A DNA stretch of 20,000 nt from an uncultured virus (IMG/VR IMGVR_UViG_3300032285_000379) (lineage: Duplodnaviria > Heunggongvirae > Uroviricota > Caudoviricetes). Shown here one piece after another: positions 1 to 20,000 of this stretch; the first letter of the stretch is position 1, and each line of letters starts with the position of its first letter. Location: the IMG/VR virus record IMGVR_UViG_3300032285_000379. One strand, given 5' to 3'. The notes under the pieces are model-generated. The model was not told the origin of the DNA. It did no database searches and was given only the letters and a program-made list of their open reading frames with translations. The position numbers were made by a program, and so were the translations under genes.

Positions 1-293
1 TGAGGAAGACAAATGAGAAAGCTAAAACTGCTGCCCAAGAGCGCGACGCTGCTATTACTGCTGGCACTTACCGGATGCGGGTTCCTGTCCAAGCGACCTG
101 CCCCGTACCAGCCACCGCAGATTCCTCAGCTCCCGCAGGAGATAACCGAGGAGAAGCTAGAGCCGAGCTTGACCCAGCGTTTGGAAAAGCTCTTTTCCAA
201 TTAACCGAAGAAGGCGACCGCGCCATCAGGCGTTTGAATGCTTGTATCAGTTTGTACAACCAAGCGATTGAATCGCAGAAGGGAATTAAATAA
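1..293 (+). CDS. Rz: Rz-like inner-membrane spanin (i-spanin), 5' truncated by window edge
   Basis: Frame 3 is open from position 3 (RKTNEKAKTAAQERDAAITAGTYRMRVPVQATCP...EEGDRAIRRLNACISLY), so ORF 75..293 is only its C-terminal part. The Rz-like C-terminus has two Cys, the frame contains a lipoprotein gene in another frame, and the stop overlaps the endolysin start (TAATG). Confidence 0.85.
   Translation, partial: RKTNEKAKTAAQERDAAITAGTYRMRVPVQATCPVPATADSSAPAGDNRGEARAELDPAFGKALFQLTEEGDRAIRRLNACISLYNQAIESQKGIK
13..204 (+). CDS. Rz1: Rz1-like outer-membrane lipoprotein spanin (o-spanin), nested in Rz
   Basis: GAGGA RBS at 2-6. Basic N-terminus, hydrophobic stretch and lipobox LALTG-C, then a Pro-rich segment (PAPYQPPQIPQLP). 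Fully embedded in the i-spanin frame, as in lambda Rz/Rz1. Confidence 0.88.
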   Translation: MRKLKLLPKSATLLLLLALTGCGFLSKRPAPYQPPQIPQLPQEITEEKLEPSLTQRLEKLFSN

Positions 294-757
294 TGCAACT
301 CTCAGCCAACTTCAGCCTGCATGAGCTGACCAAATCAGAAACTGCCCTGCGCATGGGCTTTGACAATACCCCCCGTGATGCCGAGACAGAGAGCTTGCGT
401 TTGCTGTGCGAAAAGGTTCTTCAGCCCGTGCGCGACCACTACGGCAAGGGTGTCAAGGTGAACTCTGGGTTCCGCAGTCCTGAGTCAAATGCAGCAGTGG
501 GCGGAAGTAAGACCTCAGACCATTGCAAGGGCCAAGCAGCCGATATTGAGATACCCGGAGTCCCTAACGCCGAGCTTGCCCAGTGGATCATGGATAACTT
601 AGAATACACCCAGTTGATACTGGAGTTTTACACTCCGGGCATTCCAGACAGTGGATGGGTGCATGTCAGCTACGACCCAGACAACTTAAAGAAGCAGGAG
701 TTGACCGCCATGAAAGTCGCTGGTAAAACTCAATATGTTCCCGGACTCGTAGCCTGA
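293..757 (+). CDS. Endolysin, peptidase M15A-type Zn D-Ala-D-Ala/L-Ala-D-Glu peptidase fold
   Basis: Motifs NSGFRSPESNAAVGG, SDHCKGQAADI and WVHVS supply the H, D and H zinc ligands typical of Peptidase_M15_3. Adjacent to the spanins. Confidence 0.9.
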   Translation: MQLSANFSLHELTKSETALRMGFDNTPRDAETESLRLLCEKVLQPVRDHYGKGVKVNSGFRSPESNAAVGGSKTSDHCKGQAADIEIPGVPNAELAQWIMDNLEYTQLILEFYTPGIPDSGWVHVSYDPDNLKKQELTAMKVAGKTQYVPGLVA

Positions 758-4052: not shown

Positions 4053-5774
4053 ATGAGTTTACAGCACACTGCCAACAACTTAGCTGCTCATGGCAGAGGC
4101 CCGGACACGATCCTTGTCCACATGACTCCCGGAGAGCTGAAGAGTTTAAACGACTTGGCGATGGCTCACGGCGGGCATATCACTATCAACCCTGATACGG
4201 GTTTACCCGAAGCAGGCTTCTTGTCATCCATTCTTCCTATGGTTGCTGGCGCAGCACTTGGCCCGGCAGGTATGGGTTTATTTGAATCTGCGGGTATGGC
4301 TGGCCTTGGTGTAGGCGCTTTAACTGGATTGGCTACAGGCAGTCTTTCTAAAGGCTTGATGGCTGGCATGGGCGCTTATGGCGGCGCAGGTTTGGGTGAA
4401 GCGTTGGCTAAATCAGGCATGGAAGCCTCAACAGCGGTGGAAGCACAAAAGCAAGCATTAGCAGAATCCAATAAAGCATTAGCTGACGCAGCACAACGAA
4501 ACACATTGTTCCAAGACTCCACAGCCTTAAAACCTGAACTTACATCGCAAGGCGCAGATTTAATGGCAAAGCAACAAGCCGCAAATCAAGGTTTGAGCAA
4601 TGTCGTGGAGAATGCCAGACAGTCCTATGCCGATAGCGGGATCATGGGCAAATTTGGCACTATGGGTGAAGGTCTGAAAACAGGCTTTGGCAATATTGCA
4701 AGCAATGCCGGTGGCAATATGGGCTTAGCTAAATACGGGTTGGCTGCGGCTGCTCCTGCTATTGGGGAAATGATGCAACCCAAAAAGCAAGAGCCTATGA
4801 AGATGGACAACAATCCCGGACAACAATATAACTACACGCCCGGCACGTTGCAAGGGCCGTATACAGCCGACCCAAGCGGTAGAGAGCGGCAGTATTTCAA
4901 TCATCAGTACACCCCACGATATGCTGATGGCGGTACGGTTGAACCGGGTACTCCTACGAAGTACTCCTATGACCCAATGGCGCAGATGTTCAATAAAATT
5001 GAATCCACACCATCGGATGACCAGAATAAACAAAAAGCTGAAACCCAAGCACAAATAGAACATAGCAGTGGCGGGAAAAATGCCAATTCTTATACCCCGC
5101 CGGGCGATCCGTCAGGTTTTCAAACGCCCGGAGAATTAGCTTCCAATAGAGCAATGTTTTTACCAACTGTTTTGAATCTTTTAACGCCATTTCCAATTAA
5201 ATTAGCAATGGATGCTCTTGGCGTTTCACCATTTGGATCAACTTCATCCGGCGGTGTAAGCAAAAGCAGTGGAAGTCCTATGGCTGGCGTTTCGTTTAAA
5301 GGTGATGTTGGTCAGGTGGCTAATGCCGTAACAACGGGCAATCTTGCAGCCGCCGCTGGTGGTAGTGGCGGCATGGGTAATGTTGGCATTGGTAATGGCG
5401 CTACAGCATCTGGCGTAGGAACAGGAATTGGTAGTGTTGGAAGTAGCGGCGGCGGCTTGAAAGACGGCGGTTTATCTGATGGTCACTTCAACCTTGGCGG
5501 TTACTCAGACGGCGGCAGATTATTGCGTGGCCCCGGTGATGGCGTATCAGACTCTATTCCTGCGACCATAGGTCATAAGCAACCAGCTCGACTGGCTGAT
5601 GGTGAGTTTGTTGTACCCGCTCGGATTGTTTCTGAGTTGGGCAACGGATCAACTGAAGCTGGCGCACGCAAGCTGTATGCCATGATGGACAGAGTTCAGT
5701 CCGCACGCAGTAAGACCGTCGGCAAGGGAAGAATTGCAAAAAACAGCAGGGCTGATAAGTATTTGCCAGCATGA
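4053..5774 (+). CDS. Probable internal virion / DNA ejection protein (573 aa)
   Basis: Start moved to ATG 4053 (GAGG RBS upstream). N-terminal GRGPDTILVH...INPDTGLPEA domain, then Gly/Ala hydrophobic helices. The C-terminal RGPGDGVSDSIPA...LADGEFVVPA domain resembles the C-terminal region of tape-measure proteins. Confidence 0.7.
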   Translation: MSLQHTANNLAAHGRGPDTILVHMTPGELKSLNDLAMAHGGHITINPDTGLPEAGFLSSILPMVAGAALGPAGMGLFESAGMAGLGVGALTGLATGSLSKGLMAGMGAYGGAGLGEALAKSGMEASTAVEAQKQALAESNKALADAAQRNTLFQDSTALKPELTSQGADLMAKQQAANQGLSNVVENARQSYADSGIMGKFGTMGEGLKTGFGNIASNAGGNMGLAKYGLAAAAPAIGEMMQPKKQEPMKMDNNPGQQYNYTPGTLQGPYTADPSGRERQYFNHQYTPRYADGGTVEPGTPTKYSYDPMAQMFNKIESTPSDDQNKQKAETQAQIEHSSGGKNANSYTPPGDPSGFQTPGELASNRAMFLPTVLNLLTPFPIKLAMDALGVSPFGSTSSGGVSKSSGSPMAGVSFKGDVGQVANAVTTGNLAAAAGGSGGMGNVGIGNGATASGVGTGIGSVGSSGGGLKDGGLSDGHFNLGGYSDGGRLLRGPGDGVSDSIPATIGHKQPARLADGEFVVPARIVSELGNGSTEAGARKLYAMMDRVQSARSKTVGKGRIAKNSRADKYLPA

Positions 5775-6232
5775 GTTACGTAATCACTTTAGAAAAGTTC
5801 ACCGATACATACTTGGAGCTTGAACCCTTGTATCGGCAGCACTATAAAGAGATGACGGATCGTTTAAACGCTGAAGGATTTGAGTATTCTCCGTATAACC
5901 CAAGGCTGGATGAATATGGAAATGCTTGTGAAAGAGGTGATTTGCTGACCTTTGTGCTTAGGCTAGAAGGTGTTGCCTGCGGTTACATCAACGTTTACAT
6001 ATCAAGAGATATGCATAACCAAGACTTAATCGCAATGGAAGACACCATTTTTGTGGTCAAAGAACATCGCAACGGAGTTGGCAAAAAACTTGTTCAGTTT
6101 GGGTTAGATGAATTGAAGAGCCGGGGAGTAAAACGGTTGCTTGTGTCAGCAATGACTGATTTGCGTGTGGCAAAACTTTGGGGCCGGATGGGCTTCAAAG
6201 AAGCAGCAACACAAATGATTTATAGATTTTGA
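5771..6232 (+). CDS. GNAT-family N-acetyltransferase (virion-assembly associated)
   Basis: Motif A (FVVKEHRNGVGKKLVQF) and motif B (LWGRMGF) of GNATs. ATGA-coupled to the upstream gene. Similar position to P22 gene 14 / T7 gene 13, next to the ejection genes. Confidence 0.85.
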   Translation: MSYVITLEKFTDTYLELEPLYRQHYKEMTDRLNAEGFEYSPYNPRLDEYGNACERGDLLTFVLRLEGVACGYINVYISRDMHNQDLIAMEDTIFVVKEHRNGVGKKLVQFGLDELKSRGVKRLLVSAMTDLRVAKLWGRMGFKEAATQMIYRF

Positions 6233-8352: not shown

Positions 8353-11300
8353 ATGACCATTCAAGCCCAATTAGCAGATGGTCGTGTTCTTGAATTTCCC
8401 GACGGCACTGATCCGTCAGTTGTTCAGGCTACCGTCAAAAAGGTCATTGCTAACCCAATGGCGGCTCAGTCAACCGCATCTTTGGAATCAGCTAAAGCCG
8501 CACCATTTTCCTTTGGAGATATAGCCAAATCATTTGGCGCTGGCGTAGTTGGCGGGGCGAAGAGTCTGGTTGACGTGGTTGGCGCTGGTTCTGGTGTTTC
8601 CCAAGGATTGGGCGAAGCCCAAGATTACCTACAGAGAAGTCTTTCTCCTGAGCGTCAAGCTGAGATAGCTAGAGATCAGGAACTAATGAACCGTGCGCAG
8701 GATAAAGGTATTGGCTCTGAAATCATGGCTGGCCTCAAGACTGTTGCCCATGCTCCGTTCCAAAGCATTGCGCAGGGCGTAGGATCGTCCTTGCCTGCGA
8801 TTGTGGGTGGACTTGTCACTTTGCCGGAATCGGCCCCTGCTGCGCTTGCATTGGGTGTCCAAAGGGCATCTAGCTTATTGATCGCCGCAGCCCAAGGTGT
8901 TGGTGAGACAAAAGGAAACATCCATGATGAGGTTAAGAAAGCCTACATGGATCAAGGTGTGCCGGAAGCTGAAGCCGCCAAGCTTGCCGTCAAGGCTCAG
9001 GAATACACCCTTGAAAAAGCCCCAATGCTTATCGGTAGTGCCGCCTTTGGTGCTTTGGATGCACTGACCGGCTTTGAGAAATCTACATCCCGGGCATTAA
9101 AAGATGCGTTTAAAGGCGAAGAGCGTAAGCTTGAAGGTAAAGGTTTAAAAGCTGCAATAGCCGCATTGCCAGAAAAGGCTCCAGAACTACCTACGCTTGC
9201 CAAGTCTGCATTACATACAGCGGGTGAAGAGGGTCTTACAGAAGCGTTGCAGGGCGGATATGGACAGGCCGCACAGAACATCGGCATGTCTCAGGCTGGG
9301 TTTGAAACTCCAACGATGCAGGGTGTTGGTGGTGCAGCCGCACATGATGCGCTGATTGGGGCCTTGACCGGCGGAGCAATGTCCCCCTTGCATTTCCAAG
9401 GAGCCAAAGCTGATTACGCCGCAGATCAGTTTCTGCGGGAAGTTAAAGGACAACAAGAGCAGGAAAAAGCAAAAGCTGATGCCCTCAAAGAACAACAGGA
9501 AACGCGGGCCAAGACCGAGCAGGGTTTAAACGTACCCAAGATGCTGGCCCTACCAGCCCCTGCCAAGGCCGCAGAAGAAGAGAAAGACCCGCTTCAAAAT
9601 CCTGTTGGTCGTGTGACTGAGGATGAGTTGGGTAAAGCGATTGGCAACAACACGGTTGTCAATTACTTAAACAAGTACCGCAAGGACAACAATCTCCCTA
9701 AGTTGAAGTCATACAGCATCGAAGACATCAAAGATGCCATGACCGCTCAGAACCCAGAGGGTGAAGAAGGTGCTTTAAACGCCATTCTGGCGTACAAGAC
9801 CAATTACCAGAACGAAACCTACACGCCCGAAGATATTCAGAACCGCGCTGTAGCCAAGAATGTTGCCACGGAAACCAAGGGCTTCTCTGATTTCTTGACC
9901 CGGGCCACTGGCAAGTCTGATTTAAACACCATGACGCAGCCGGAATTGCATTCCGTCGCTACGGCTTTGGATGCTTTGCCCCGTACAGGCAAAGAGCAAC
10001 AGCTTGTCTTGCCTGAAGGCTCTAACGCCACAAGGTTTACACAAGACCAATACAACCAAGGCGTAACCCAAGCTTTGATGAATGTCAAAGAAGGCAAGCC
10101 TGTAACTTTGGATCAAGCCAGAGAAGCAATCAAAGCCCAGACAGATCTCAAGACCGATAGAGATGCTGATCATCTTTTGAAGACCGCAGCTTCAAATGAA
10201 GATTTGATTGTTGAAAAAGGAACAGGCTTTCAAGCTGTCAGCCCCGGAGGCACAGTCCTTGGCACATACGGAACAGAAGCAGAGGCCAAGCGTAAACATC
10301 GTCGTGCAGACATTCTGCCTGTTGAGACTCAGTTGGTACGTGCGCCAGAGGAAGTTAATCAAGAGAAGGTTGCTCAACTGCCAGAAGGCTATGAGATCAA
10401 CAAGAAAACCGTGGCTGGAGAAGCTGGCCCGGCGGCATATGTTGTTCGTGAAGATGGCTCACAAACAAACGCATCGCAGACATTTGCAGATGAGGCTGAT
10501 GCCAAAGATCGTTTAAACATTCTGGCCCGCAAACGAGAAGCCAATGCCGTTGCCGAGGAAGCTGCTGCCGACCGCATTCGTCAAGATCTTAAGAAGAGAC
10601 AATCCAAAATTGCCCAAATGGAAGCTGATGGGCAGACTGACACTGCTGAACACAAGAACGCAGTTGCCGCATTTCAAGCCGCCAATGTGGCTGGCAGTGC
10701 CAAAATCACTGAACATTTGGATAAGGCTGAGGCTTTCCGCAAGCCGCTGAAAATTGTTCCGCTTGGCAAAAAGACAGCCAAGGTAGAGAAACATACGGTC
10801 ATCAAAAAAGGTAAAGAGGTTGCCAGCTTCCCTGACAGAGTTAAGGCTGAGCAACATATTCTTGCCAGCGCCAGCGAAGCAGAGCTTCAAGCTATTGCCG
10901 ACCGTGGCGGTATCTTTGGTAAACGTGCGCAGACTGAACTGCAAGATCGTCAACGCACTGAGCCGGGCATCAAGGTCAAGGGAACCGCTGAAGGTTTAGA
11001 GAAAGCCGGTGTTCGCACGCCGGAGGTGGAAGCCAAGCTTAAAGAGCTGGAAGCCAAGCTCAAGCCAATGTTGGACAAGTTTGGTCTGGGCGAAGTTGGT
11101 TTAAACGTTGTGCGGGCCATAGAGAATGACGCAGAAGGCGCTTGGGGTGGCTTAAACAACCTGATCCGTATTGCCTTTAACGCAGACAATCCTATCCGCA
11201 CTATGCGCCATGAGGCGCTACACGCACTAAAAGATCTTGGGTTCTTCACTCCCCAGCAGTGGGAAGCTCTGAAGCGTGAAGCCAAGAAGACTTGGGTAGA

Positions 11301-14300
11301 CAAATACCTTAAAGGTGTTCCATTCAATGACACCATGTCTAGGTTTGATGCCTATACAAATATGGGTTTGTCTGATGAGGCAATCCTTGAAGAAGCCATT
11401 GCTGATGCATTTGGAAGCTGGGAAGGCGGAGCTAAACCACCTCCCGGGATGATGGCTGCACTGTTTAAACGTTTGCAGCAGTTCTTTGCTGCACTGCGTC
11501 AAGCATTGACCGGCGCAGGCTTTGAATCTGCGGATGAGATTTTTGGCAAGATTGAACGTGGCGAACTGAAAGCTGGCAAGGAAGCCGCTGGTACTGAGGC
11601 CAAGCTATCGCTTGCAGAAAAAGAGAGTAAAGAAAAGATTGACCCTAATGATGTGTCAAGGGTTGTGATTGACGGGCCTTATGCCGATGCCGCAATTAGA
11701 ACAATGAACTCTCAAATCACGCAGACCTCTAAACCTTTGGAGGTTGATGATGTTGGCAGATTGTTTGACAAAGCGTTTATGGATCAGTTTAAACGCAAGG
11801 GCGACTGGAAAAGTCCGGCAGACTTCCAGAGAGCGGTAGCTCAAGCTGTTACAGAACTCAAGCATCAACTTCAACAAACCAAGTCCGGGCTGGACTGGTA
11901 CGAAGAAGACATTGCAGATGCGTTTAAACAAACACAGAAATACATACCAAGCCTGAAAAAACCTGAGAAGCGTGCGCTGTTCTCTGTAATTGCAGGAATT
12001 ATGTCTCCTAGCGTAAACGCTAGAGACAACTGGGTCATTGCCGCTCAGGCTTATCAGCACTACGAAAAGACAGGCATTCTGCCCGGATCTAACCCCGCGA
12101 CAGGTAGCTTATGGCAAGGTGGTTTGGAATCTGCAAATAAGAAGAAGCAACTGGACATGCTCAACGCCATGCTCCAACCAAAATCAAAAGGTGGCCTCGG
12201 AGAGAAAGCTACGGTTGAATGGTTGCAGGGCGACCACACTGTTGCGGAAATCACGAACTTCCGCAAAAAATATGGCGGCATGGGTAAGTCCAGTACCGGT
12301 GGTAAGGCATCAGATATTTTGCCGGGCTTTACTGCGTTTGGCCCAAAGGTTGGCCCATTTGTAATGAATATAAACGGCATACACGATGTAACCGTGGATG
12401 TCTGGATGACCAGAACTTTCAATAGATATTTTGGACAAATGATGGGGCCTGATGGTACGATGCTTCGATCACCAACAGAGCCGCAACGGGTTGCAATCAA
12501 GAAGCTTGCAATAGATGCTGCCGCTCAGCTTGGCATCAAGCCATATCAGGTACAGTCTACCCTTTGGTTTTTTGAGCAACAGCTTTTCAACAAACTTGGA
12601 ACAGGAGCGAAAAGTTATGGATTCAGCGACGGCGCAATCAAATTCATCGAGTCCCAAGGAGGAACTGCGCCAGCAAAAGGCGCTCCTGCAAATGTCGGCG
12701 CTAATGCGCCAGCGAACAAACCAGCCGGAAAGCAAGCTGTCGGAAATAGCGCACAAGCGGCTAGACCATCAACTGGGCAACAAGGAGTAAGCGGTGAACA
12801 AAAACTCAGCCTTGGAAGAAATGCAGACAGAGTTAGCTTTGTCGGCCCCGCATTCGACGAACGAAAGCTCAGAGGAGCCGGAGACAGAGGAAGAGGGTCT
12901 GAAGTACGGAACCTTGCGCCTCTTGAAGGCTCGCCATCAGTCAAGGGCTTTTCAGGCCCAGACCCGCGCCTTGTCTCAATCGCAGAACAATACGCAAAAG
13001 ACAACGGAATAGACTACAGAAGACAGAAAGAATATGTCCAAGTAGATGAAGACCGCGCTCGTCGTATTGCTGATGCGTACGACAAGATGGAACATGCTCC
13101 TCAAGACCCAGAGGTCAAAGAGGCTTATCAAAACCTAATCCGTCAGACCCGCGCACAGTATGATGCGCTGGTTAAGAACGGTTATAAATTCTGGTTTACA
13201 GACTACAACATTCCTGACAACGCAGAGTATCTGTCTTCTCCTTGGAATGCTATGCGCGACATTCGCGCAAACAAAACAATGGGTGTGTTCCCAACAAACG
13301 AAGGCTTTGGAACAACCGAGTTTGATCCTGCCGCAAATCCACTGTTGGAAGACACAGGCTTGGAATGGCCTGTCGGTAGCCCTAACAGCACAAAGAAAAG
13401 CCCTGTGCTTGCCAATGACCTGTTCCGTGCGGTGCATGATGCATTTGGTCATGGACTTGAAGGTGCGGGTTTCCGCGCCAGAGGTGAAGAGAACGCATGG
13501 CTTGCTCACAGCAAGCTGTTTACAGGTAGCGCACTTGCGGCAATCACATCTGAGACAAGAGGTCAGAACTCTTGGCTGAACTACGGCCCACAGGGTGAGA
13601 AGAACAGAACCGCCAAGATTGAAGACACCACATTTGCCGACCAGAAAACTGGGCTGATGCCAAGTTGGACATGGCAAGAGGGTCAAGATAAATACTCTCT
13701 GAAATTTGCTGAGCCAGCACTTAAACCAAAGCAAGGTGAAGGCATTGTGCTTGGCGAGAAACAACCTGACGCACAAACCTTTGTTGGCTTGCACTATGGT
13801 CAAAACAAAGTTGATGAGCTGTCAGGCTCTAAATATGGAACTGGCATCAAGGGTGCAGAGCGTCGCCGGTTGGCTGACACTGACGACCAGCGCATCAAGA
13901 AACGCATCTACTTCTACATCCCTAAAGAAGACGGCTCCATGCCACGCAACGAAGCTGGGCTGGGCGGACATGTTTACACGCAACAGTTTGACAACATTGC
14001 TGCTGGGCCAGTGGTTGATCGTTTGTTCAGTGAAGCTGGCGGAGATGCCAATCAGTTTGAATCCAATGTTGTAGACGCAGGTTACGACGGCTATGCCATG
14101 CCAAGCATGGGCATGATGGTTATTCTGAACCATGACACACCTGTTCAGTACCACGGCACGATGGGTGAGTTGGTTGAAAGCGACAAGAAGTTCAGCCTGC
14201 GTGCCGCACCAGATACGCCTGAATTTAAACGCTGGTTTGGCAACAGCGATGCTATTGACAAAGATGGCAAACCTTTAGTTGTTTACACTGCAACAAATAA

Positions 14301-17300
14301 AGATTTCACAGTCTTTGAACCCGGTCGCGGTGCATCAAAGGATGCAATTGCCGCATGGGTCACCAGCGACAAAGATTTTGTTAATAACTACGCCTCAGTA
14401 AGATATAGATATTGGAAAACAATGCATCGCCCTTGGGAAGAGGATCAAATGATCCCCAATGGCGTACATATTGTTCCGGCTTATGTCAATCCCAAAAACC
14501 CGCTCGACGTAACAAATTTAATCAGCGATTTGGCTGCGCCAATAAATGACTCTGAGGCAGAAAAGGTCGCAGACCAACTTCAAGTTTCTAAAGATGACCT
14601 TCTGGATGCAATACCAGAAAAAGATATTTACCCTAACGGGCGAGAGCGCGATCACACAAGAATAAGTTCTGACCTTGTCAGAACAAAATTTGCAGTGGAT
14701 GCTATGCGCAGACTTGGTTTTGATTCGGTAAAAGCGCGGGAGTCAGGAGCTTCTGTTTACGCTCTTTTTGATAGCAATCAAATTAAATCTGCTATTTCAA
14801 ATAAAGGGACATACAGCGGCCCCGACATTCGTTACAGCTTGCGCACATATTTCCCTACCGCAGAAGAAGCAGAGAAAGCTGCGTACCAGAAAGCTCCGCC
14901 CGCCACACCAGAATTTAAACGCTTCTTTGGGGCTAGCAAGGTCATGGAAGAAGGTCGCCCGCAGGTTATGTACCACGGTTCGCCTAATGAGTTTGATACA
15001 TTCCGTGACGGTATGCCAATCTTTGTCAGCCCAGACCCAGAATTTGCTGAACAGTTTGGTAGAGATAGGGCTAAAGATGACGGAAAAGATCCCAATGAAG
15101 CAAAGGTTTATCCATTGTGGGTACGGGCTGAGACACCGTTTGATTACGAAAACCCTGACCATGTAAAGAAAATTGCTGACGCAATTATTGCGGAGCATTA
15201 TTCAAAAACAGACGAATCAATTGTCCGTTTAAAACAATCAAGACCGACAGTTAAAAAGTTCCGTGAAGAGCTGGCTGATGGGTTGTGGTCTGTTATTGAA
15301 GATCCAATTGTTCAGACTAAATTAAAAGAGCTTGGCTTTGACTCATTCAATGTCAAAGAAGGTGGTAACAAGAACCTTGCCGTCTTCAACGCCAACCAAG
15401 TCAAATCTGTCACAGGAAACATTGGTGATTTTAGTGAGAACAAGAGCATTAAGTACAGCCTGCCAAACATTGGCGCTGCCGCTGATGCCCGTGTAAACGA
15501 AACAACGCAAACCCGGGAACACAAAGGATGGCTGGAACGTGTCACAGATTGGCTCAAGCCTGAGAACATGGCTGACCTGCGTGCCAGCTTTATCCACCGC
15601 TACAACCAGCTTGGCGTTTACGACAGACTGCTTGCAGAGAAGATGGGTGGCAAAGTCCTGCTGGCTGACATGAGCGCAGAAGCGGCGGCAAACATGTCTG
15701 ACCTGTCTGCTTCAGTGACTGCGTCTGTCTTTGGTATCGGCAACCGCAAAGGTGGTATCCCTGTTTACAAGAACGGCATGACGACCGTCGATACATCTGT
15801 GCGTGGCCCTCTGCAAATCCTTGCCCCACTGGCGCAGTTCAATGATCCCAAAGCCTATCAACACTACCAATACTGGGCAGGTGTCAAGCGCGGTATGCGC
15901 TACGAAGCTGACGGCAAAGAGAAGAACTTTGATAAGGGCGACATCGCCTTGGCAGAAAAGGTGCGTCAAGAGTACCTAGCCAAAGGTGTTGACTTCAACG
16001 CCATCCAAAAGGAAATGAATGTCTACAACGATGGTCTGGTGGACTACATGGTTCAGACCGGAGTCATCGCCCCTGAGCGTGGCGCAGAGTTCAAAAAGCA
16101 CATGGACTACATCCCGTTCTACCGCCAGATCAACGGCGAAGATACGGTCGGCCCAAAGATCTTCAACTCCATCTCAGGTGTTAAGCCACCCAAGAAACTT
16201 AAGGGAAGCGAAGCTCCTTTGACGGACTACTTGGAATCCATTGTTCAGAATACGCAGGCCGCAATCAACGCTGGTATGAAGAACATGGCGGCACAACGAG
16301 CGATCAATGTTGCTATACAGCTAGGCCCAAGGGCTGGCGCACAGCGTTTAAACGTTGTCAATAGCGCCCCGGACTGCGTTCAGGTGCTGGAAAACGGAAA
16401 GCAAGTCTCTTACCGGGTGGCTGATCAGTTGTTCATCAATGCGGTCAAAAGTTTAAACATGGCTGAGATGCCTTTCTTGGGTATTTTCTCTGCGCCGTCC
16501 AACCTGCTCCGCAACTTGGTTACCAAGGATCCGGGCTTTATGTTGGCTAACTTGGCAAGGGACTCATTGTCTGCTTGGGTGACCAGCGGGTCAAAGATGA
16601 CTCCTATCGCAGGGACAGTGTCGAAGTTTGTAGAGGCTCTGGGCGGTAAGTCTCCTGCCCTCCATGCTTTATTAAACGCAGGCATCTTGGGCGGCTATGA
16701 GTTCTCCTCTGGCGTAATTAAGAGTGGTGAAGTCCTAGAGAAGGACTTGAACAAGAAGTACGGCGCTAAGGGCGGCTTCAAGCCGCTGAAGACATTCACA
16801 GGAATCTGGGATGCCTTAGAGCATGGCACTGAAGCATCTGATGCGGCAACCCGCATGGCTGTCTATGAGCGTGTTCTGGCTGAGACAGGCAACGAAACAG
16901 AGGCTCTGTACCGTGCGCTTGAGGTGATGAACTTCAACCGCAAAGGAAGCTCACCTGTCGTGCGCATTCTGACCGCCGCCATTCCATTCCTCAACGCACG
17001 TATCCAAGGCTTGGATGTGTTCTACCGCACAGCGATGGGTACGAACGTATCCGCCAACGCTAAGGAAATGCAGAAGGCATTCTTTGTGCGTGGCGCTACG
17101 CTGATGGCTCTGTCTGCGGCTTACTTCCTTGCCGTCTCTGATGATGATGAATGGAAGAAACAAGAGCAGGAAACCAAGGACAACTACTGGATCGCTCCGG
17201 GAATAGGTAAATTCCCTACCCCGTTTGAGGTTGGCTTCTTGTTTAAGACAGTTCCTGAGCGCATCATGGCTTACACAATGAAGGATGACACCGGTCAGGA

Positions 17301-18003
17301 CTTTATGGCTTCCATGCAGCGTGGACTCTTAAACACATTTGCGTTTAACCCAATCCCTCAGATTGCCAAACCAATCATTGAGTACAACGCAAACTACAAC
17401 TTCTTTACCGGACGACCTATCGTCGGTCAGGGTATGGAAGGGCTGGAGCCTAAGTATCAGGTTGGCCCAAACACAACCAAGACCGCAGAAGCTCTGGGTA
17501 ACTTATTGGGTATGCCGCCTATCAAACTGGATCAGTTGATCAACAGCTACACCGGAACGATGGGCATGTATGCCATGTCGGTAATCGATGCGGTTCTGGA
17601 TACACAAGACAACAGCCCACATGCGTCTAAACGCTTTGAGCAACTGCCAATCATCAAGAGATTTGCGCTTGACCCAGAGGCCAGAGGAAACATCACTCAG
17701 TACTACGAACTGAAGAAAGCCGTAGATGCGGCAACTCAGACCGAGAACTACTTACTCAAAGCAGGTAAGCCAGATGAGTTCAGAGAGTTCATGGAGCAGA
17801 ACAAAGGGCTGTTGGCAATCAAGCCGTACGTTTCCAGTGTGGAAAGTACCATGAAACAAATGCGGGAGATGCGCAAGATGGTTCAAGGTGCAGAGATGTC
17901 TGCTGATGAGAAGCGTGATACCTTGACCGCCATCGGGCAGGCCGAGAATAATTTAAACGCCAACATCCAAACCATCAAGAAGATGATCAGCGAAGTCCAA
18001 TAA
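8353..18003 (+). CDS. Giant polyvalent virion-injected protein (3216 aa): membrane-like N-region, metallopeptidase, glycosylase-like, ART-like modules, LPD38-like C-terminus
   Basis: Uninterrupted 9.65-kb ORF with GAGGA RBS. HEALH at 11209-11223 with downstream EEAIA. GPKV..VDVWM. HDAFGH..GEENA. Two TPEFKRxFG..GFDS..QxKS repeats. C-terminal MNFNRKG..IPFLNARIQG..PTPFEVG..NFFTGRPIV. Last gene of the ejection block. Confidence 0.85.
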   Translation: MTIQAQLADGRVLEFPDGTDPSVVQATVKKVIANPMAAQSTASLESAKAAPFSFGDIAKSFGAGVVGGAKSLVDVVGAGSGVSQGLGEAQDYLQRSLSPERQAEIARDQELMNRAQDKGIGSEIMAGLKTVAHAPFQSIAQGVGSSLPAIVGGLVTLPESAPAALALGVQRASSLLIAAAQGVGETKGNIHDEVKKAYMDQGVPEAEAAKLAVKAQEYTLEKAPMLIGSAAFGALDALTGFEKSTSRALKDAFKGEERKLEGKGLKAAIAALPEKAPELPTLAKSALHTAGEEGLTEALQGGYGQAAQNIGMSQAGFETPTMQGVGGAAAHDALIGALTGGAMSPLHFQGAKADYAADQFLREVKGQQEQEKAKADALKEQQETRAKTEQGLNVPKMLALPAPAKAAEEEKDPLQNPVGRVTEDELGKAIGNNTVVNYLNKYRKDNNLPKLKSYSIEDIKDAMTAQNPEGEEGALNAILAYKTNYQNETYTPEDIQNRAVAKNVATETKGFSDFLTRATGKSDLNTMTQPELHSVATALDALPRTGKEQQLVLPEGSNATRFTQDQYNQGVTQALMNVKEGKPVTLDQAREAIKAQTDLKTDRDADHLLKTAASNEDLIVEKGTGFQAVSPGGTVLGTYGTEAEAKRKHRRADILPVETQLVRAPEEVNQEKVAQLPEGYEINKKTVAGEAGPAAYVVREDGSQTNASQTFADEADAKDRLNILARKREANAVAEEAAADRIRQDLKKRQSKIAQMEADGQTDTAEHKNAVAAFQAANVAGSAKITEHLDKAEAFRKPLKIVPLGKKTAKVEKHTVIKKGKEVASFPDRVKAEQHILASASEAELQAIADRGGIFGKRAQTELQDRQRTEPGIKVKGTAEGLEKAGVRTPEVEAKLKELEAKLKPMLDKFGLGEVGLNVVRAIENDAEGAWGGLNNLIRIAFNADNPIRTMRHEALHALKDLGFFTPQQWEALKREAKKTWVDKYLKGVPFNDTMSRFDAYTNMGLSDEAILEEAIADAFGSWEGGAKPPPGMMAALFKRLQQFFAALRQALTGAGFESADEIFGKIERGELKAGKEAAGTEAKLSLAEKESKEKIDPNDVSRVVIDGPYADAAIRTMNSQITQTSKPLEVDDVGRLFDKAFMDQFKRKGDWKSPADFQRAVAQAVTELKHQLQQTKSGLDWYEEDIADAFKQTQKYIPSLKKPEKRALFSVIAGIMSPSVNARDNWVIAAQAYQHYEKTGILPGSNPATGSLWQGGLESANKKKQLDMLNAMLQPKSKGGLGEKATVEWLQGDHTVAEITNFRKKYGGMGKSSTGGKASDILPGFTAFGPKVGPFVMNINGIHDVTVDVWMTRTFNRYFGQMMGPDGTMLRSPTEPQRVAIKKLAIDAAAQLGIKPYQVQSTLWFFEQQLFNKLGTGAKSYGFSDGAIKFIESQGGTAPAKGAPANVGANAPANKPAGKQAVGNSAQAARPSTGQQGVSGEQKLSLGRNADRVSFVGPAFDERKLRGAGDRGRGSEVRNLAPLEGSPSVKGFSGPDPRLVSIAEQYAKDNGIDYRRQKEYVQVDEDRARRIADAYDKMEHAPQDPEVKEAYQNLIRQTRAQYDALVKNGYKFWFTDYNIPDNAEYLSSPWNAMRDIRANKTMGVFPTNEGFGTTEFDPAANPLLEDTGLEWPVGSPNSTKKSPVLANDLFRAVHDAFGHGLEGAGFRARGEENAWLAHSKLFTGSALAAITSETRGQNSWLNYGPQGEKNRTAKIEDTTFADQKTGLMPSWTWQEGQDKYSLKFAEPALKPKQGEGIVLGEKQPDAQTFVGLHYGQNKVDELSGSKYGTGIKGAERRRLADTDDQRIKKRIYFYIPKEDGSMPRNEAGLGGHVYTQQFDNIAAGPVVDRLFSEAGGDANQFESNVVDAGYDGYAMPSMGMMVILNHDTPVQYHGTMGELVESDKKFSLRAAPDTPEFKRWFGNSDAIDKDGKPLVVYTATNKDFTVFEPGRGASKDAIAAWVTSDKDFVNNYASVRYRYWKTMHRPWEEDQMIPNGVHIVPAYVNPKNPLDVTNLISDLAAPINDSEAEKVADQLQVSKDDLLDAIPEKDIYPNGRERDHTRISSDLVRTKFAVDAMRRLGFDSVKARESGASVYALFDSNQIKSAISNKGTYSGPDIRYSLRTYFPTAEEAEKAAYQKAPPATPEFKRFFGASKVMEEGRPQVMYHGSPNEFDTFRDGMPIFVSPDPEFAEQFGRDRAKDDGKDPNEAKVYPLWVRAETPFDYENPDHVKKIADAIIAEHYSKTDESIVRLKQSRPTVKKFREELADGLWSVIEDPIVQTKLKELGFDSFNVKEGGNKNLAVFNANQVKSVTGNIGDFSENKSIKYSLPNIGAAADARVNETTQTREHKGWLERVTDWLKPENMADLRASFIHRYNQLGVYDRLLAEKMGGKVLLADMSAEAAANMSDLSASVTASVFGIGNRKGGIPVYKNGMTTVDTSVRGPLQILAPLAQFNDPKAYQHYQYWAGVKRGMRYEADGKEKNFDKGDIALAEKVRQEYLAKGVDFNAIQKEMNVYNDGLVDYMVQTGVIAPERGAEFKKHMDYIPFYRQINGEDTVGPKIFNSISGVKPPKKLKGSEAPLTDYLESIVQNTQAAINAGMKNMAAQRAINVAIQLGPRAGAQRLNVVNSAPDCVQVLENGKQVSYRVADQLFINAVKSLNMAEMPFLGIFSAPSNLLRNLVTKDPGFMLANLARDSLSAWVTSGSKMTPIAGTVSKFVEALGGKSPALHALLNAGILGGYEFSSGVIKSGEVLEKDLNKKYGAKGGFKPLKTFTGIWDALEHGTEASDAATRMAVYERVLAETGNETEALYRALEVMNFNRKGSSPVVRILTAAIPFLNARIQGLDVFYRTAMGTNVSANAKEMQKAFFVRGATLMALSAAYFLAVSDDDEWKKQEQETKDNYWIAPGIGKFPTPFEVGFLFKTVPERIMAYTMKDDTGQDFMASMQRGLLNTFAFNPIPQIAKPIIEYNANYNFFTGRPIVGQGMEGLEPKYQVGPNTTKTAEALGNLLGMPPIKLDQLINSYTGTMGMYAMSVIDAVLDTQDNSPHASKRFEQLPIIKRFALDPEARGNITQYYELKKAVDAATQTENYLLKAGKPDEFREFMEQNKGLLAIKPYVSSVESTMKQMREMRKMVQGAEMSADEKRDTLTAIGQAENNLNANIQTIKKMISEVQ
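11050..11570 (+). other. Zincin metallopeptidase domain (MPTase-PolyVal-like) within the giant protein; boundaries approximate
   Basis: AEGAW...IRIAF...TMRHEALHAL...EEAIADAF: HExxH plus a downstream Glu ligand. Confidence 0.75.
14200..15450 (+). repeat. Tandem pair of ART-PolyVal-like ADP-ribosyltransferase domains (14200-14829 and 14842-15450)
   Basis: Both copies have TPEFKR(W/F)FG, P-V-Y(TA/HG), a central Y/W-V..P, LGFDS and F..NQ(I/V)KS. The DNA GAATTTAAACGCT is shared at 14221 and 14911. Confidence 0.75.
16800..17700 (+). other. LPD38-like (large polyvalent protein associated) C-terminal region; boundaries approximate
   Basis: NFNRKG, IPFLNARIQG, DNYWI, PTPFEVGFLFK-PER and PIIEYNANYNFFTGRPIV are recalled as motifs of this family. 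Confidence 0.65.
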
Positions 18004-18277
18004 CATCGTTGTCAAAAAGCCAGCCTACCGTTGCCCGGTGGGCTGCCTCCCACATGTTTAAACGCTCTTCCCGGCTCATCCTATGACCTTGATCTAATTC
18101 AGCGTGGCAGGTAAAACATAGCGCAGCGATGCGGTAATCATGGGCTTTAAGACTTCTGCCCTTGCCGTCCCGACTCTGATTGGAATGAGCGGCTACAACC
18201 GTACCATCTTCTTTCCCGCAATGCTGGCACGGCGAAGCACGTACAGCTTCAAGCAGTTTCTGGTTGCGGTACATCAA
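17987..18277 (-). CDS. DUF1364/YbcO-like Zn-binding HNH-type putative nuclease
   Basis: YRNQKLLEAVR..PCQHCG..TVVAAHSN..GKG..KAHD..AALCFTCHAELD: the CxxC...H...CxxCH pattern of this prophage family. Confidence 0.75.
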   Translation of the reverse strand: MMYRNQKLLEAVRASPCQHCGKEDGTVVAAHSNQSRDGKGRSLKAHDYRIAALCFTCHAELDQGHRMSREERLNMWEAAHRATVGWLFDNDVIGLR

Positions 18278-18552
18278 CGGGCTTTGGCTTTGACAATGTC
18301 TTTAACTGGTTGCCATTTGGAGGCCACCACTTTAGTAATTCTCTCTGGCACAGTACTGTGGTAGCGCAGGTTCTGTCGGGCTTTTTTTCTGTTTTCTTTT
18401 TCAAGGCTCTGTAATTCAAGTGTTGCTTTCAATTCTGCGCTATGGCGCAGGTACAGGCGAAACCATGTGATCCCGCCTATCCGTAGGTACTCCTCATATT
18501 CGGAGTCCGATAGTCTAGCATTGATAGAGTTAACTGCCTTCTCTTTTCTCAT
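18274..18552 (-). CDS. Hypothetical protein, possible ribbon-helix-helix-like DNA-binding N-terminus
   Basis: SINARLSDSEYEEYLRIGGITWFRLYL resembles a strand-helix-helix arrangement. ATGA overlaps at both ends. Confidence 0.6.
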   Translation of the reverse strand: MRKEKAVNSINARLSDSEYEEYLRIGGITWFRLYLRHSAELKATLELQSLEKENRKKARQNLRYHSTVPERITKVVASKWQPVKDIVKAKAR

Positions 18553-18770
18553 GGTTTGCCAATCATCGTAGGTGATCTAGGCTGGAGAATTTTTGATGTA
18601 ACTCCGTAGACCGTGCCGTGGCTAGGCTTGGTTTCTCTAATCTTCTCAACAGCCACCGATGTGCGCTTACTGATGGCAGCACCACGCTTTACATGTTTAA
18701 ACGGATCGCCACGCTTCGCACGCTCCTCGTCCGTATATTCTTTCCAGTCAAATGCGTTCACGGCAGTCAT
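18549..18770 (-). CDS. Hypothetical basic protein (73 aa)
   Basis: GGAGAACAGC-ATG RBS and ATGA coupling to the next gene. Confidence 0.65.
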   Translation of the reverse strand: MTAVNAFDWKEYTDEERAKRGDPFKHVKRGAAISKRTSVAVEKIRETKPSHGTVYGVTSKILQPRSPTMIGKP

Positions 18771-18900
18771 GCTGTTCTCCGGCTGTCTTCGTTGTAAAAA
18801 TTAAATGGCACTTAATGCATCGGTAGAGCATTCCCTCTTCCACAATGACCCTACCCCTGCCTCTGAGCTTTCCCCAAAATGTTCTTATCAGTTCAAGCAT
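18748..18900 (-). CDS. Small Zn-finger protein (50 aa; CxxC-x12-HxC, C2H2-like)
   Basis: Start reassigned to ATG 18900 after AGGAGAAGAACA. Sequence YRCIKCHLIFTTKTAGEQHDC. Confidence 0.65.
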   Translation of the reverse strand: MLELIRTFWGKLRGRGRVIVEEGMLYRCIKCHLIFTTKTAGEQHDCRERI

Positions 18901-19162
18901 TGTTCTTCTCCTTGAGTTTGGCTTCAATCTTGCGTGCATCTGCCAGTAGTCGTATAGGGTTGACATCTGAGTTTGATGTACCAATTCGCCCACCAAATGC
19001 GTCCCAAATATCATCATCAGTCAGCCCTACCCATGTGCGCTGCGCCGCTTTCCACGCAAACTTAAACGCATCCGTCTGCCCATGCAGCCTGCCTTCCATA
19101 GAAGCCACATACTCATCCCATGCAAGCTCAATGGGTTCTTTGGGTGTTGTTCGCTCAACCAT
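18893..19162 (-). CDS. Hypothetical protein (89 aa) with RTWVGLT...IEAKLKEKN C-terminal module
   Basis: Start reassigned to ATG 19162 after AGGAGAAGAACA. 8-bp overlap with the downstream gene. Confidence 0.7.
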   Translation of the reverse strand: MVERTTPKEPIELAWDEYVASMEGRLHGQTDAFKFAWKAAQRTWVGLTDDDIWDAFGGRIGTSNSDVNPIRLLADARKIEAKLKEKNNA

Positions 19163-19172
19163 TGTTCTTCTC

Positions 19173-19373
19173 CTAATATGAGATGTGTCTGTCGTACAGT
19201 TTTGAAATTGTTTCACGGTCAATGTAATAGTCCCGCACAACCGCCAGTTGTTTGATGTCCTCAATCAATGCAAGCATTGCAGCCTTGTGATGCCTGTCAT
19301 CAATGTCGTAGTCTTCTACCAGCTTGGCTCGCCACGCAGATTTATCGCCGGTTACACGCAGGTGTCTAGCCAT
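19173..19373 (-). CDS. Hypothetical protein (66 aa)
   Basis: GGAGGAACACA-ATG RBS. Its TAG stop is part of the next gene's RBS. Confidence 0.65.
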   Translation of the reverse strand: MARHLRVTGDKSAWRAKLVEDYDIDDRHHKAAMLALIEDIKQLAVVRDYYIDRETISKLYDRHISY

Positions 19374-19563
19374 TGTGTTCCTCCCATCGTTTACACATCT
19401 GCTTTACTGTCTTGCTTTGCTTCTTACCCTTGCGCTCACACACTGCGCTCACGGATTTGTACACTGCCTTTTGTTTCAGTGTCAGTGGTGCTGGCGGCTC
19501 TGGGTTTAAACCATTCCAGCCGACCGTGCCAAGAATGGCGCTTAGGATTAGGCGGTCAATCAT
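19366..19563 (-). CDS. Hypothetical small protein with N-terminal hydrophobic/signal-like segment and two Cys (65 aa)
   Basis: AAGGAGAACAC-ATG RBS. Begins MIDRLILSAILGTVG. ATGA-coupled to the upstream gene. Confidence 0.65.
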   Translation of the reverse strand: MIDRLILSAILGTVGWNGLNPEPPAPLTLKQKAVYKSVSAVCERKGKKQSKTVKQMCKRWEEHNG

Positions 19564-19763
19564 GTGTTCTCCTTCTTGTTAAACCCACCAAAGTGCGCAC
19601 CTACATTCAAAATTGCCGCTCGCTTGACGAACTCCTGTTCTGCTGGTGTCAGGTCGTTGTACCCTTCAGCTTTGTTGCAAAGATCGTCAGTTATTTTCTT
19701 CATTGATTCACCCAACGCCTTGGCATGGCGCTTCGCCAGTTTGCCGTATTCATCGTCTGTCAT
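19560..19763 (-). CDS. Hypothetical protein (67 aa)
   Basis: Start reassigned to ATG 19763 after GGAGAAGAACAC. ATGA overlaps at both ends. Ends KKENT. Confidence 0.65.
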   Translation of the reverse strand: MTDDEYGKLAKRHAKALGESMKKITDDLCNKAEGYNDLTPAEQEFVKRAAILNVGAHFGGFNKKENT

Positions 19764-19999
19764 GTGTTCTTCTCCATCTCGTTGATAAGTTCGCCGCACA
19801 ACGTTCGCGCCTCATCGTTGCCGCCTTTGACTGTAATGATTACAGCGTTGCCTTCAACTCTTACGCCACGCATCAGACCTACCCATGTGCGTTGTTTTAG
19901 GCGTTTAATCTCTGCTCGTAACTCAGCATTGATTTTGTGTTCTTCAATACCCTTGCGAATTAACTCGCTAGTCACCTGCGTTTCCCGATGTTCCCAATC
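19760..19999 (-). CDS. Hypothetical protein with QRTWVGL motif, probably 5' truncated by window edge
   Basis: The frame is open beyond GTG 19975 to the window end (DWEHRETQVTSELIRK...). Ends EMEKNT with ATGA coupling. Confidence 0.65.
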   Translation of the reverse strand, partial: DWEHRETQVTSELIRKGIEEHKINAELRAEIKRLKQRTWVGLMRGVRVEGNAVIITVKGGNDEARTLCGELINEMEKNT

Positions 20000-20000
20000 G

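Follow-up and report, generated by a model that had tools for sequence, protein, structure and literature searches.

In a 20,000-nucleotide stretch of DNA from an uncultured virus of the Caudoviricetes (IMG/VR record IMGVR_UViG_3300032285_000379; the whole stretch is called the window here) we studied a giant open reading frame (ORF) of 3,216 amino acids (aa), located at 8353-18003 on the plus strand, in which a short peptide motif, [KR]-[LYF]-S-L, occurs six times. We concluded that the motif is, almost certainly, a real and conserved delimiter of the cargo modules of this protein and a joint at which such modules are exchanged. Regarding its function, we favour the explanation that a zincin-like HExxH domain embedded in the same polypeptide recognises the motif and cuts there; this explanation, drawn from sequence comparison, is tentative and has nearly an even chance of being right. 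The giant protein is organised in three parts, a conserved N-terminal region ending in the HExxH...EEAIAD domain, a variable train of cargo modules and a conserved C-terminal region containing LPD38.

The six motifs were found exactly at the nucleotide (nt) positions given in a preliminary description of the window, all in the single translation of 8353-18003. On the plus strand they read KLSL (motif 1, aa 1084-1087, 11602..11613), KLSL (motif 2, aa 1484-1487, 12802..12813), KYSL (motif 3, aa 1780-1783, 13690..13701), KFSL (motif 4, aa 1946-1949, 14188..14199), RYSL (motif 5, aa 2160-2163, 14830..14841) and KYSL (motif 6, aa 2367-2370, 15451..15462). From composition 0.21 sites were expected by chance, and in 5000 shuffles the mean was 0.22, with six sites reached in 0 of 5000. 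No further x[LYFIVMW]SL was present in the giant protein beyond these six, the sole other [KR]xSL being RDSL at residue 2736, within the conserved C-terminal region. None of the six other window ORFs of at least 100 aa taken as genes contained the motif. Since the pattern was picked after the sequence had been read, the homologues provide the fairer test. Among the six sites the serine and leucine codons varied; selection thus acts at the protein level, and the conserved entity is the peptide rather than a DNA site.

The location of the motifs relative to folded domains was followed in two AlphaFold2 models, covering aa 1470-2400 (mean predicted local distance difference test score, pLDDT, of 72) and aa 821-1516 (76), built on alignments of 41 and 46 sequences. 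Stretches with a pLDDT below 50 made up about 20% of each model, and all six motifs were located in such stretches, between confidently folded blocks, as expected for the interdomain linkers proposed earlier. Motif 1 was found in the low-confidence segment aa 1070-1092, motif 3 at the start of the segment aa 1780-1794, motif 4 in aa 1943-1951, motif 5 in aa 2149-2163 and motif 6 in aa 2356-2374; motif 2 had a low pLDDT in both models. The linker around motif 2 (12676-12909, aa 1442-1519) was unusually long with about 78 residues, rich in A, G, P, N and Q, and this low-complexity sequence was nearly identical in several relatives.

A homologue search with aa 1084-2370 resulted in 1765 giant proteins at E<=1e-3, and the best 120 of 1765 were analysed. 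The strict motif was present in 105 of the 120, with a mean of about three copies and usually 2-5. Zero copies were found in 15 proteins, one in 8, two in 20, three in 30, four in 23, five in 14, six in 7 and seven in 3, compared with 0.10-0.32 expected per protein in the same set. Across 306 distinct instances the core positions held 2.9-4.2 bits each, the flanks less than 0.85 bit and the +4 position 1.8 bits, this fifth position being R, K or P in 82% of the instances. The extended motif is [KR]-[YLF]-S-L-[RKP], set in otherwise unconserved linkers. Substitution counts showed that all four core positions are specific, with K or R at position 1 in 363 of 495, L, Y or F at position 2, an invariant S at position 3 and L at position 4. 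The motif is thus kept at the module boundaries of homologues, as the frequency in the 120 giants, the low-information flanks and the alignment ends at all six sites show.

The homologues also revealed that modules are gained and lost exactly between motifs. In P0002, which is 96% identical to the window protein, one 214-aa indel removes aa 1948-2161 and ends inside KF|SL and RY|SL, corresponding to the loss of exactly one ADP-ribosyltransferase (ART) module. The same indel distinguishes P0016, P0055 and P0021 from the window protein, and in P0003 an additional module is inserted between two motifs. When the window protein was compared with the other 119 proteins, the alignment ends clustered at all six sites. 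In an all-against-all comparison of the 120 giants, 126 of 453 endpoint clusters of high-scoring segment pairs with at least 80% identity lay within 5 aa of a motif, where 7.8 were expected, an enrichment of about 16-fold. Splitting the 120 giants at the motifs gave 444 segments in 46 clusters, most of them without a Pfam family, and the order of the clusters varied between proteins. The first two motif residues stayed with the upstream module (RY, RF or RL after ART, KL after the glycosylase-like module). The suggestion that the motif is a recombination joint was accordingly borne out at the level of the protein and not as a DNA site, since the six sites use differing Ser and Leu codons.

The motif goes together with the HExxH domain. 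Among the 119 homologues (best of 1765) both domain and motif were found in 100, neither in 9, only the domain in 6 and only the motif in 4. At the aligned positions the six domain-only homologues had KLSV, KLSI, KASLR or RKSLR. Of the four motif-only homologues, three were without the entire N-terminal region and, judged by their sequences, look like truncated or split ORFs. The strict motif was also detected in 87 of 114 further diverse domain-bearing representatives of at least 1800 aa, with a mean of 1.95 against 0.23 expected, and many of the other 27 showed RKSLR, KKSLR, RASLR or KPSLR. These [KR][KAP]SL[RK] variants point to [KR]-x-S-L-[RK] as the general form, with x set by the clade. 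In 244 proteins 920 motif positions were located downstream of HExxH and 50 upstream, and the first motif lay 100-170 aa past HExxH in 57% of the proteins. The window protein agrees with the earlier statement that the first motif follows closely on the peptidase, motif 1 starting 131 residues past HEALH, and the N-terminal conserved region (aa 1-884, 8353..11004, plus strand) is almost motif-free across the family.

As a control set we used 119 relatives of the giant protein of phage record MW202722, a sister clade in which 114 of 119 proteins are without the HExxH domain. The ART, glycosylase-like and HDxxGH modules of the window protein recur in these giants, with identities of up to 66%. 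In the 114 domain-less proteins the strict motif was counted zero times in 75, once in 26, twice in 11 and three times in 2, which is near background, and the looser matches in this clade were conserved sites inside domains. Following the ART-end signature, the motif was present in 199 of 256 copies with the HExxH domain versus 3 of 55 copies without it, and following the end of the HDxxGH module in 21 of 83 copies versus 1 of 79. The S-L-[RK] half of the motif was specific to the domain-bearing clade.

The HExxH domain itself, a candidate zincin peptidase, comprises aa 885-1075 (11005..11577, plus strand) with HEALH at nt 11209-11223 and EEAIAD at nt 11389-11406. H953, E954, H957, E1013 and E1014 were invariant across 46 sequences. 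HEALH (residues 953-957) was placed on a helix (model residues 133-141 are helical), and EEAIAD (residues 1013-1018) on the helix 188-204 of the model; we take EEAIAD to resemble the ExxxD third zinc-ligand motif of gluzincins. The domain matched 1795 clusters (50% identity, E<=1e-3) in 1.84 billion proteins, and the best 150 of the 1795 were nearly all giants. In P0122 (4,460 aa) the domain was matched in four separate stretches and no strict motif was present. Short domain-bearing proteins were considered as natural gene splits at the motif and set aside, as they look like fragments and are uninformative.

In the mechanism that we favour, the embedded zincin-like domain would cut [KR]-[YLF]-S-L-[RKP] in the disordered linker at each cargo junction. 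The cut, made either within the capsid or once the protein has been ejected, would detach the cargo modules from the ejection scaffold as individual proteins. From sequence conservation and association we infer that the HExxH domain may be an active peptidase and that the motif may be cut, and the same holds for any scissile bond and for the timing. The motif would double as an exchange joint for cargo cassettes, since modules that all start and end with the same few residues leave recombinants joined at the motif functional. A more specific version, to which we give very little weight, is that the motif acts as cut site and timer, with the zincin cutting between [KR] and [LYF] and the cargo then being degraded via the host N-end rule. 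P1'-hydrophobic metalloproteases cut before a hydrophobic residue, as [KR]|[LYF] would require, and each freed cargo enzyme would begin with Leu, Tyr or Phe, which are the primary N-degron residues read by bacterial ClpS/ClpAP.

Several observations weigh against cleavage by the embedded domain. The HExxH domain gave no match to Pfam at E<=1 and none in a PDB sequence search, and a search of the ESM atlas resulted in unnamed clusters only, with LPD23 on 18% of one. The top structural match over the domain was weak (AdnA, Z 5.2, within the aa 821-1516 model), and motif 1 was given no confident position in the model (pLDDT below 50). Some domain-bearing giants, e.g. P0310 and P0122, are without a recurrent motif. 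ART modules of domain-less giants still end in DIR[YKLF]S, and the co-occurrence of domain and motif rests on few independent lineages, uncorrected for phylogeny. A motif-bearing cultured phage was not found in the phage collection searched. The N4 virion RNA polymerase, ArdC and TraC1 have a metallopeptidase yet stay whole, according to the main text of Iyer et al. 2017 (PMC5512222).

Part of this evidence would fit a different protease, either a host enzyme acting after ejection or a phage enzyme encoded outside the window, with the HExxH domain instead directed, for example, at host proteins or the cell wall. This we consider improbable. The domain could not be assigned to a peptidase family by Pfam, PDB or structure searches, domain-bearing giants without the motif exist, as do three giants with motifs and without the domain, and the main text of Iyer et al. 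2017 (PMC5512222) also allows metallopeptidase domains acting on host targets. However, the same three proteins are also without the whole N-terminal region and look truncated or split, and the only other peptidase within the window is an M15 cell-wall enzyme. For a general host protease it would also be odd that the sister-clade giants share the cargo modules yet are without the motif. Possible, if doubtful, is that the motif is uncut and instead serves, once per module, as a short linear motif for docking to the capsid core or ejectosome, as an aid to orderly unfolding while the protein is threaded through the tail channel, or as a modification site of the [KR]-x-S type. Disordered linkers with conservation at the protein level are what docking motifs show, the serine is invariant, and metallopeptidase-bearing giant virion proteins can be packaged whole (Iyer et al. 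2017, PMC5512222, main text). The 2,811-aa gp47 of phi24B, carrying LPD38 and a metallopeptidase domain, is abundant in the virion, and fragments are unmentioned in the available part of the phi24B preprint. On the other side, a docking partner is not known, the other virion genes of the window are without the motif, and neither the tight association with HExxH nor the fixed first site directly past the domain would be explained.

Another reading makes the motif functionless, an inherited ART-PolyVal C-terminal tail (DIR[YF]S) copied to other junctions by repeated tail recombination. DIR[YKLF]S follows ART modules even in domain-less giants, which indicates that the [KR][YF]S half is an older ART tail, independent of the HExxH domain. 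A profile hidden Markov model of the HExxH domain matched just 2 of 119 sister-clade proteins, and the DIR[YF]S tails of that clade are thus not due to a distant copy of the domain. Where the motif starts with Arg, this residue moves together with ART modules, and the indels run from motif to motif, both in line with copied tails. Set against this, the motif also follows the peptidase, the glycosylase-like module, the HDxxGH module and at least 10 other module families, its four core positions are near-invariant while flanks and codons drift, and the S-L-[RK] half is confined to the domain-bearing clade. We regard a functionless tail as very unlikely. Cleavage of the motif by the embedded HExxH domain remained the explanation that we favoured.

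The order of modules given in the preliminary description was confirmed for HEALH, the glycosylase-like module, HDxxGH, two ART modules and LPD38; a further module described there as a divergent ART was unsupported. Cargo 1 (module aa 1084-1483; 11614..12801, plus strand) is HhH-GPD glycosylase-like and matched DUF7178 in Pfam weakly (32.2 bits). It has a folded core at approx. aa 1093-1441, followed by a long low-confidence linker. The fold resembled AGOG (3n0u_A, Z 10.2, root-mean-square deviation, rmsd, 4.0 over 198 aa), a queuine salvage enzyme (7ugk_A, Z 9.4), 1xqp_A (Z 8.6) and many HhH-GPD glycosylases (Z 6-8), with a Foldseek probability of 0.97. The likeness to the queuine salvage enzyme (DUF2419) nearly equals that to the AGOG 8-oxoguanine glycosylase. 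Judged from the model, cargo 1 may act on modified bases or nucleosides instead of damaged DNA.

Cargo 2 (12814..13689, plus strand) contains the invariant HDxxGH, present as HDAFGH at residues 1695-1700 (nt 13435-13452), and is 66% identical to a module of MW202722. Cargo 3 (166 aa, aa 1780-1945; 13702..14187, plus strand) is fused to cargo 2 without a motif in most relatives. This is the proposed divergent ART, a label that gained no support: an hhalign comparison of 22 sequences with 60 ART modules gave a probability of 7% over 18 columns, with similarity only around GYDGY/GFDGF, and a Pfam search gave zero matches. The earlier proposal of five separate effectors is uncertain, as the motif between cargo 2 and cargo 3 is present in only 21 of 83 relatives; both may normally act as one unit, giving four effectors in function.

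Cargo 4 (aa 1946-2159; 14200..14829, plus strand), the module missing from P0002, and cargo 5 (aa 2160-2366; 14842..15450, plus strand) are the ART-PolyVal modules 1 and 2. They matched PF18760 with 72.5 bits (residues 1969-2153) and 69.1 bits, both above the gathering cut-off of 31.2. Cargo 4 resembled MbcT (6fkg_B, Z 6.9, 126 aa, rmsd 3.8) and ParT (6d0h, Z 6.9) over model residues 495-680, and cargo 5 resembled 6kyf_A (Z 6.9) over 720-885. Matches of the ART modules to the PARP family had Z 6.0-6.5, and all ART Z values were moderate. The ART fold alignments spanned model residues 480-680 and 702-886, each reaching from a motif to its neighbour. The second ART module also aligned over 145 aa (Z 6.7) with PDB 9k3a_B, which is a chain of the pre-ejectosome of cyanophage A4, and this solved ejection protein may thus carry an ART-like domain as well.

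Downstream of motif 6 follows the conserved C-terminal region (15463..18000, plus strand), which is common to giant virion proteins of many podophages; LPD38 was detected at residues 2931-3100 (nt 17143-17652) with 126.6 bits against a Pfam cut-off of 27. The giant ORF is the final gene of the plus-strand virion operon, in the order M15 peptidase, 792-aa virion protein, fibre-like protein, 592-aa ORF, GNAT acetyltransferase, 699-aa ejection-like protein and the 3,216-aa ORF. The Peptidase_M15_3 protein (293-757, plus strand; Pfam 75 bits), at the upstream end of the window's virion gene run, is probably a cell-wall endopeptidase or endolysin. The GNAT acetyltransferase gene (5771-6232, plus strand) is located inside the operon between tail and ejection genes, and gp13 of Octadecabacter BD virus 1 is an acetyltransferase at the same position. 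Beyond the giant ORF (18003-20000) the coding strand appears to change, with a reversal of the GC and AT skews and with small minus-strand ORFs, which probably marks the border of the structural operon.

In the nearest named records, MW202722 and Octadecabacter BD virus 1, the giant gene likewise follows tail-tube, acetyltransferase and 'lysozyme' genes. By gene order the giant gene of the window occupies the slot of T7 gp16 (IVP-D), an internal virion or ejection protein. It combines two ART-PolyVal modules, an HhH-GPD-like module and an HDxxGH module with LPD38 within a phage structural operon, the combination that characterises a polyvalent protein, with LPD38 as the family-specific LPD domain. 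The product is, on these sequence features, most likely an internal virion protein of the polyvalent kind, from a T7-like podophage. Packaging in the virion and ejection together with the DNA are suggested by analogy, from the gp16-like position and the weak fold match to 9k3a_B (Z 6.7).

In a search of 50,697 phage records the DNA of the giant gene gave zero matches. We also looked for the motif in the giants of ten named records, namely MW202722, Octadecabacter BD1, Pondi, Pag-Yong1, Vibrio 1.232.O, Bcep22 gp75, Palmer, Vibrio 41E34.2, the Pseudomonas aeruginosa p382 LPD23 protein and Dolichospermum Dfl-JY45; the strict motif occurred 0-2 times in each and was enriched in none of the ten. 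N[IL]L[AN]Q, considered as another junction motif that might recur, occurred at most once per protein in eight named phage giants (MW202722 to Vibrio 41E34.2). The P. aeruginosa plasmid p382 (L009 322-15324) encodes a 5,000-aa 'LPD23 domain-containing protein', a type found on Pseudomonas megaplasmids, with an ART-PolyVal-like module of 28% identity. This protein contains neither the delimiter motif nor a copy of the HExxH domain.

Processing of polyvalent proteins into units by embedded zincin-like metallopeptidases was proposed by Iyer, Burroughs, Anand, de Souza and Aravind in 2017 (PMC5512222), whose main text names no cleavage or delimiter motif. Nothing relevant on the motif strings or on cleavage sites of polyvalent proteins was found in the literature (Iyer et al. 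2017 in its main text). Like the proteins described there, the window protein unites many effector domains, including ART-PolyVal, with LPD38 in one polypeptide, here presumably delivered by the virion; unlike them, it has an HExxH domain that no Pfam model matches. N4 gp50 differs in being reported as packaged unprocessed (Iyer et al. 2017, PMC5512222, main text), and the virion proteins of phiRIO-1 are without proteolytic processing in the available part of Hardies et al. 2016 (PMC4819975). The same part states that IVP-D homologues host domains destined for the cytoplasm, and lists as one such homologue a protein of Thalassomonas phage BA3; the C-terminal region of the window giant matches that of a BA3 protein, possibly this one. 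In its position within the structural operon, behind the genes for tail tube and ejection proteins, the window protein agrees with T7 gp16/IVP-D proteins; the repeated junction motif sets it apart from them.

Short junction peptides have counterparts in other systems. In polymorphic toxins a short conserved peptide, e.g. VENN in CdiA, marks the start of the variable toxin modules and coincides with recombination breakpoints. CdiA-type toxins have one delimiter and one C-terminal toxin, whereas the phage virion proteins considered here have as many as seven delimiters along a series of modules. In T4 and phiKZ-like phages the prohead protease cuts internal head and ejection proteins during capsid maturation, at sites specified by a short motif. 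That protease is separate from its substrate, whereas the candidate protease here is part of the substrate, and we know of no prohead protease in T7-like phages. In picornaviruses and flaviviruses a single ORF contains its own protease, and a junction motif recurs between the functional units. Their polyprotein is the replication proteome; in the dsDNA phage described here it would be a delivered package of effectors.

The motif and the HExxH domain provide a concrete, widely conserved candidate cleavage site and a candidate protease family for the processing of polyvalent proteins proposed in 2017, and make this proposal experimentally simple. If the timer version were true, toxic early effectors would be limited to the opening minutes of infection. 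ARTs and nucleic-acid enzymes would in that case be injected as a polyprotein whose cassettes can be exchanged, and the motif would supply a universal splice grammar for cargo swaps between phages. The motif also offers a sequence rule by which cargo modules can be parsed from thousands of metagenomic giant phage proteins, and the same rule explains the shuffling of cargo between phages.

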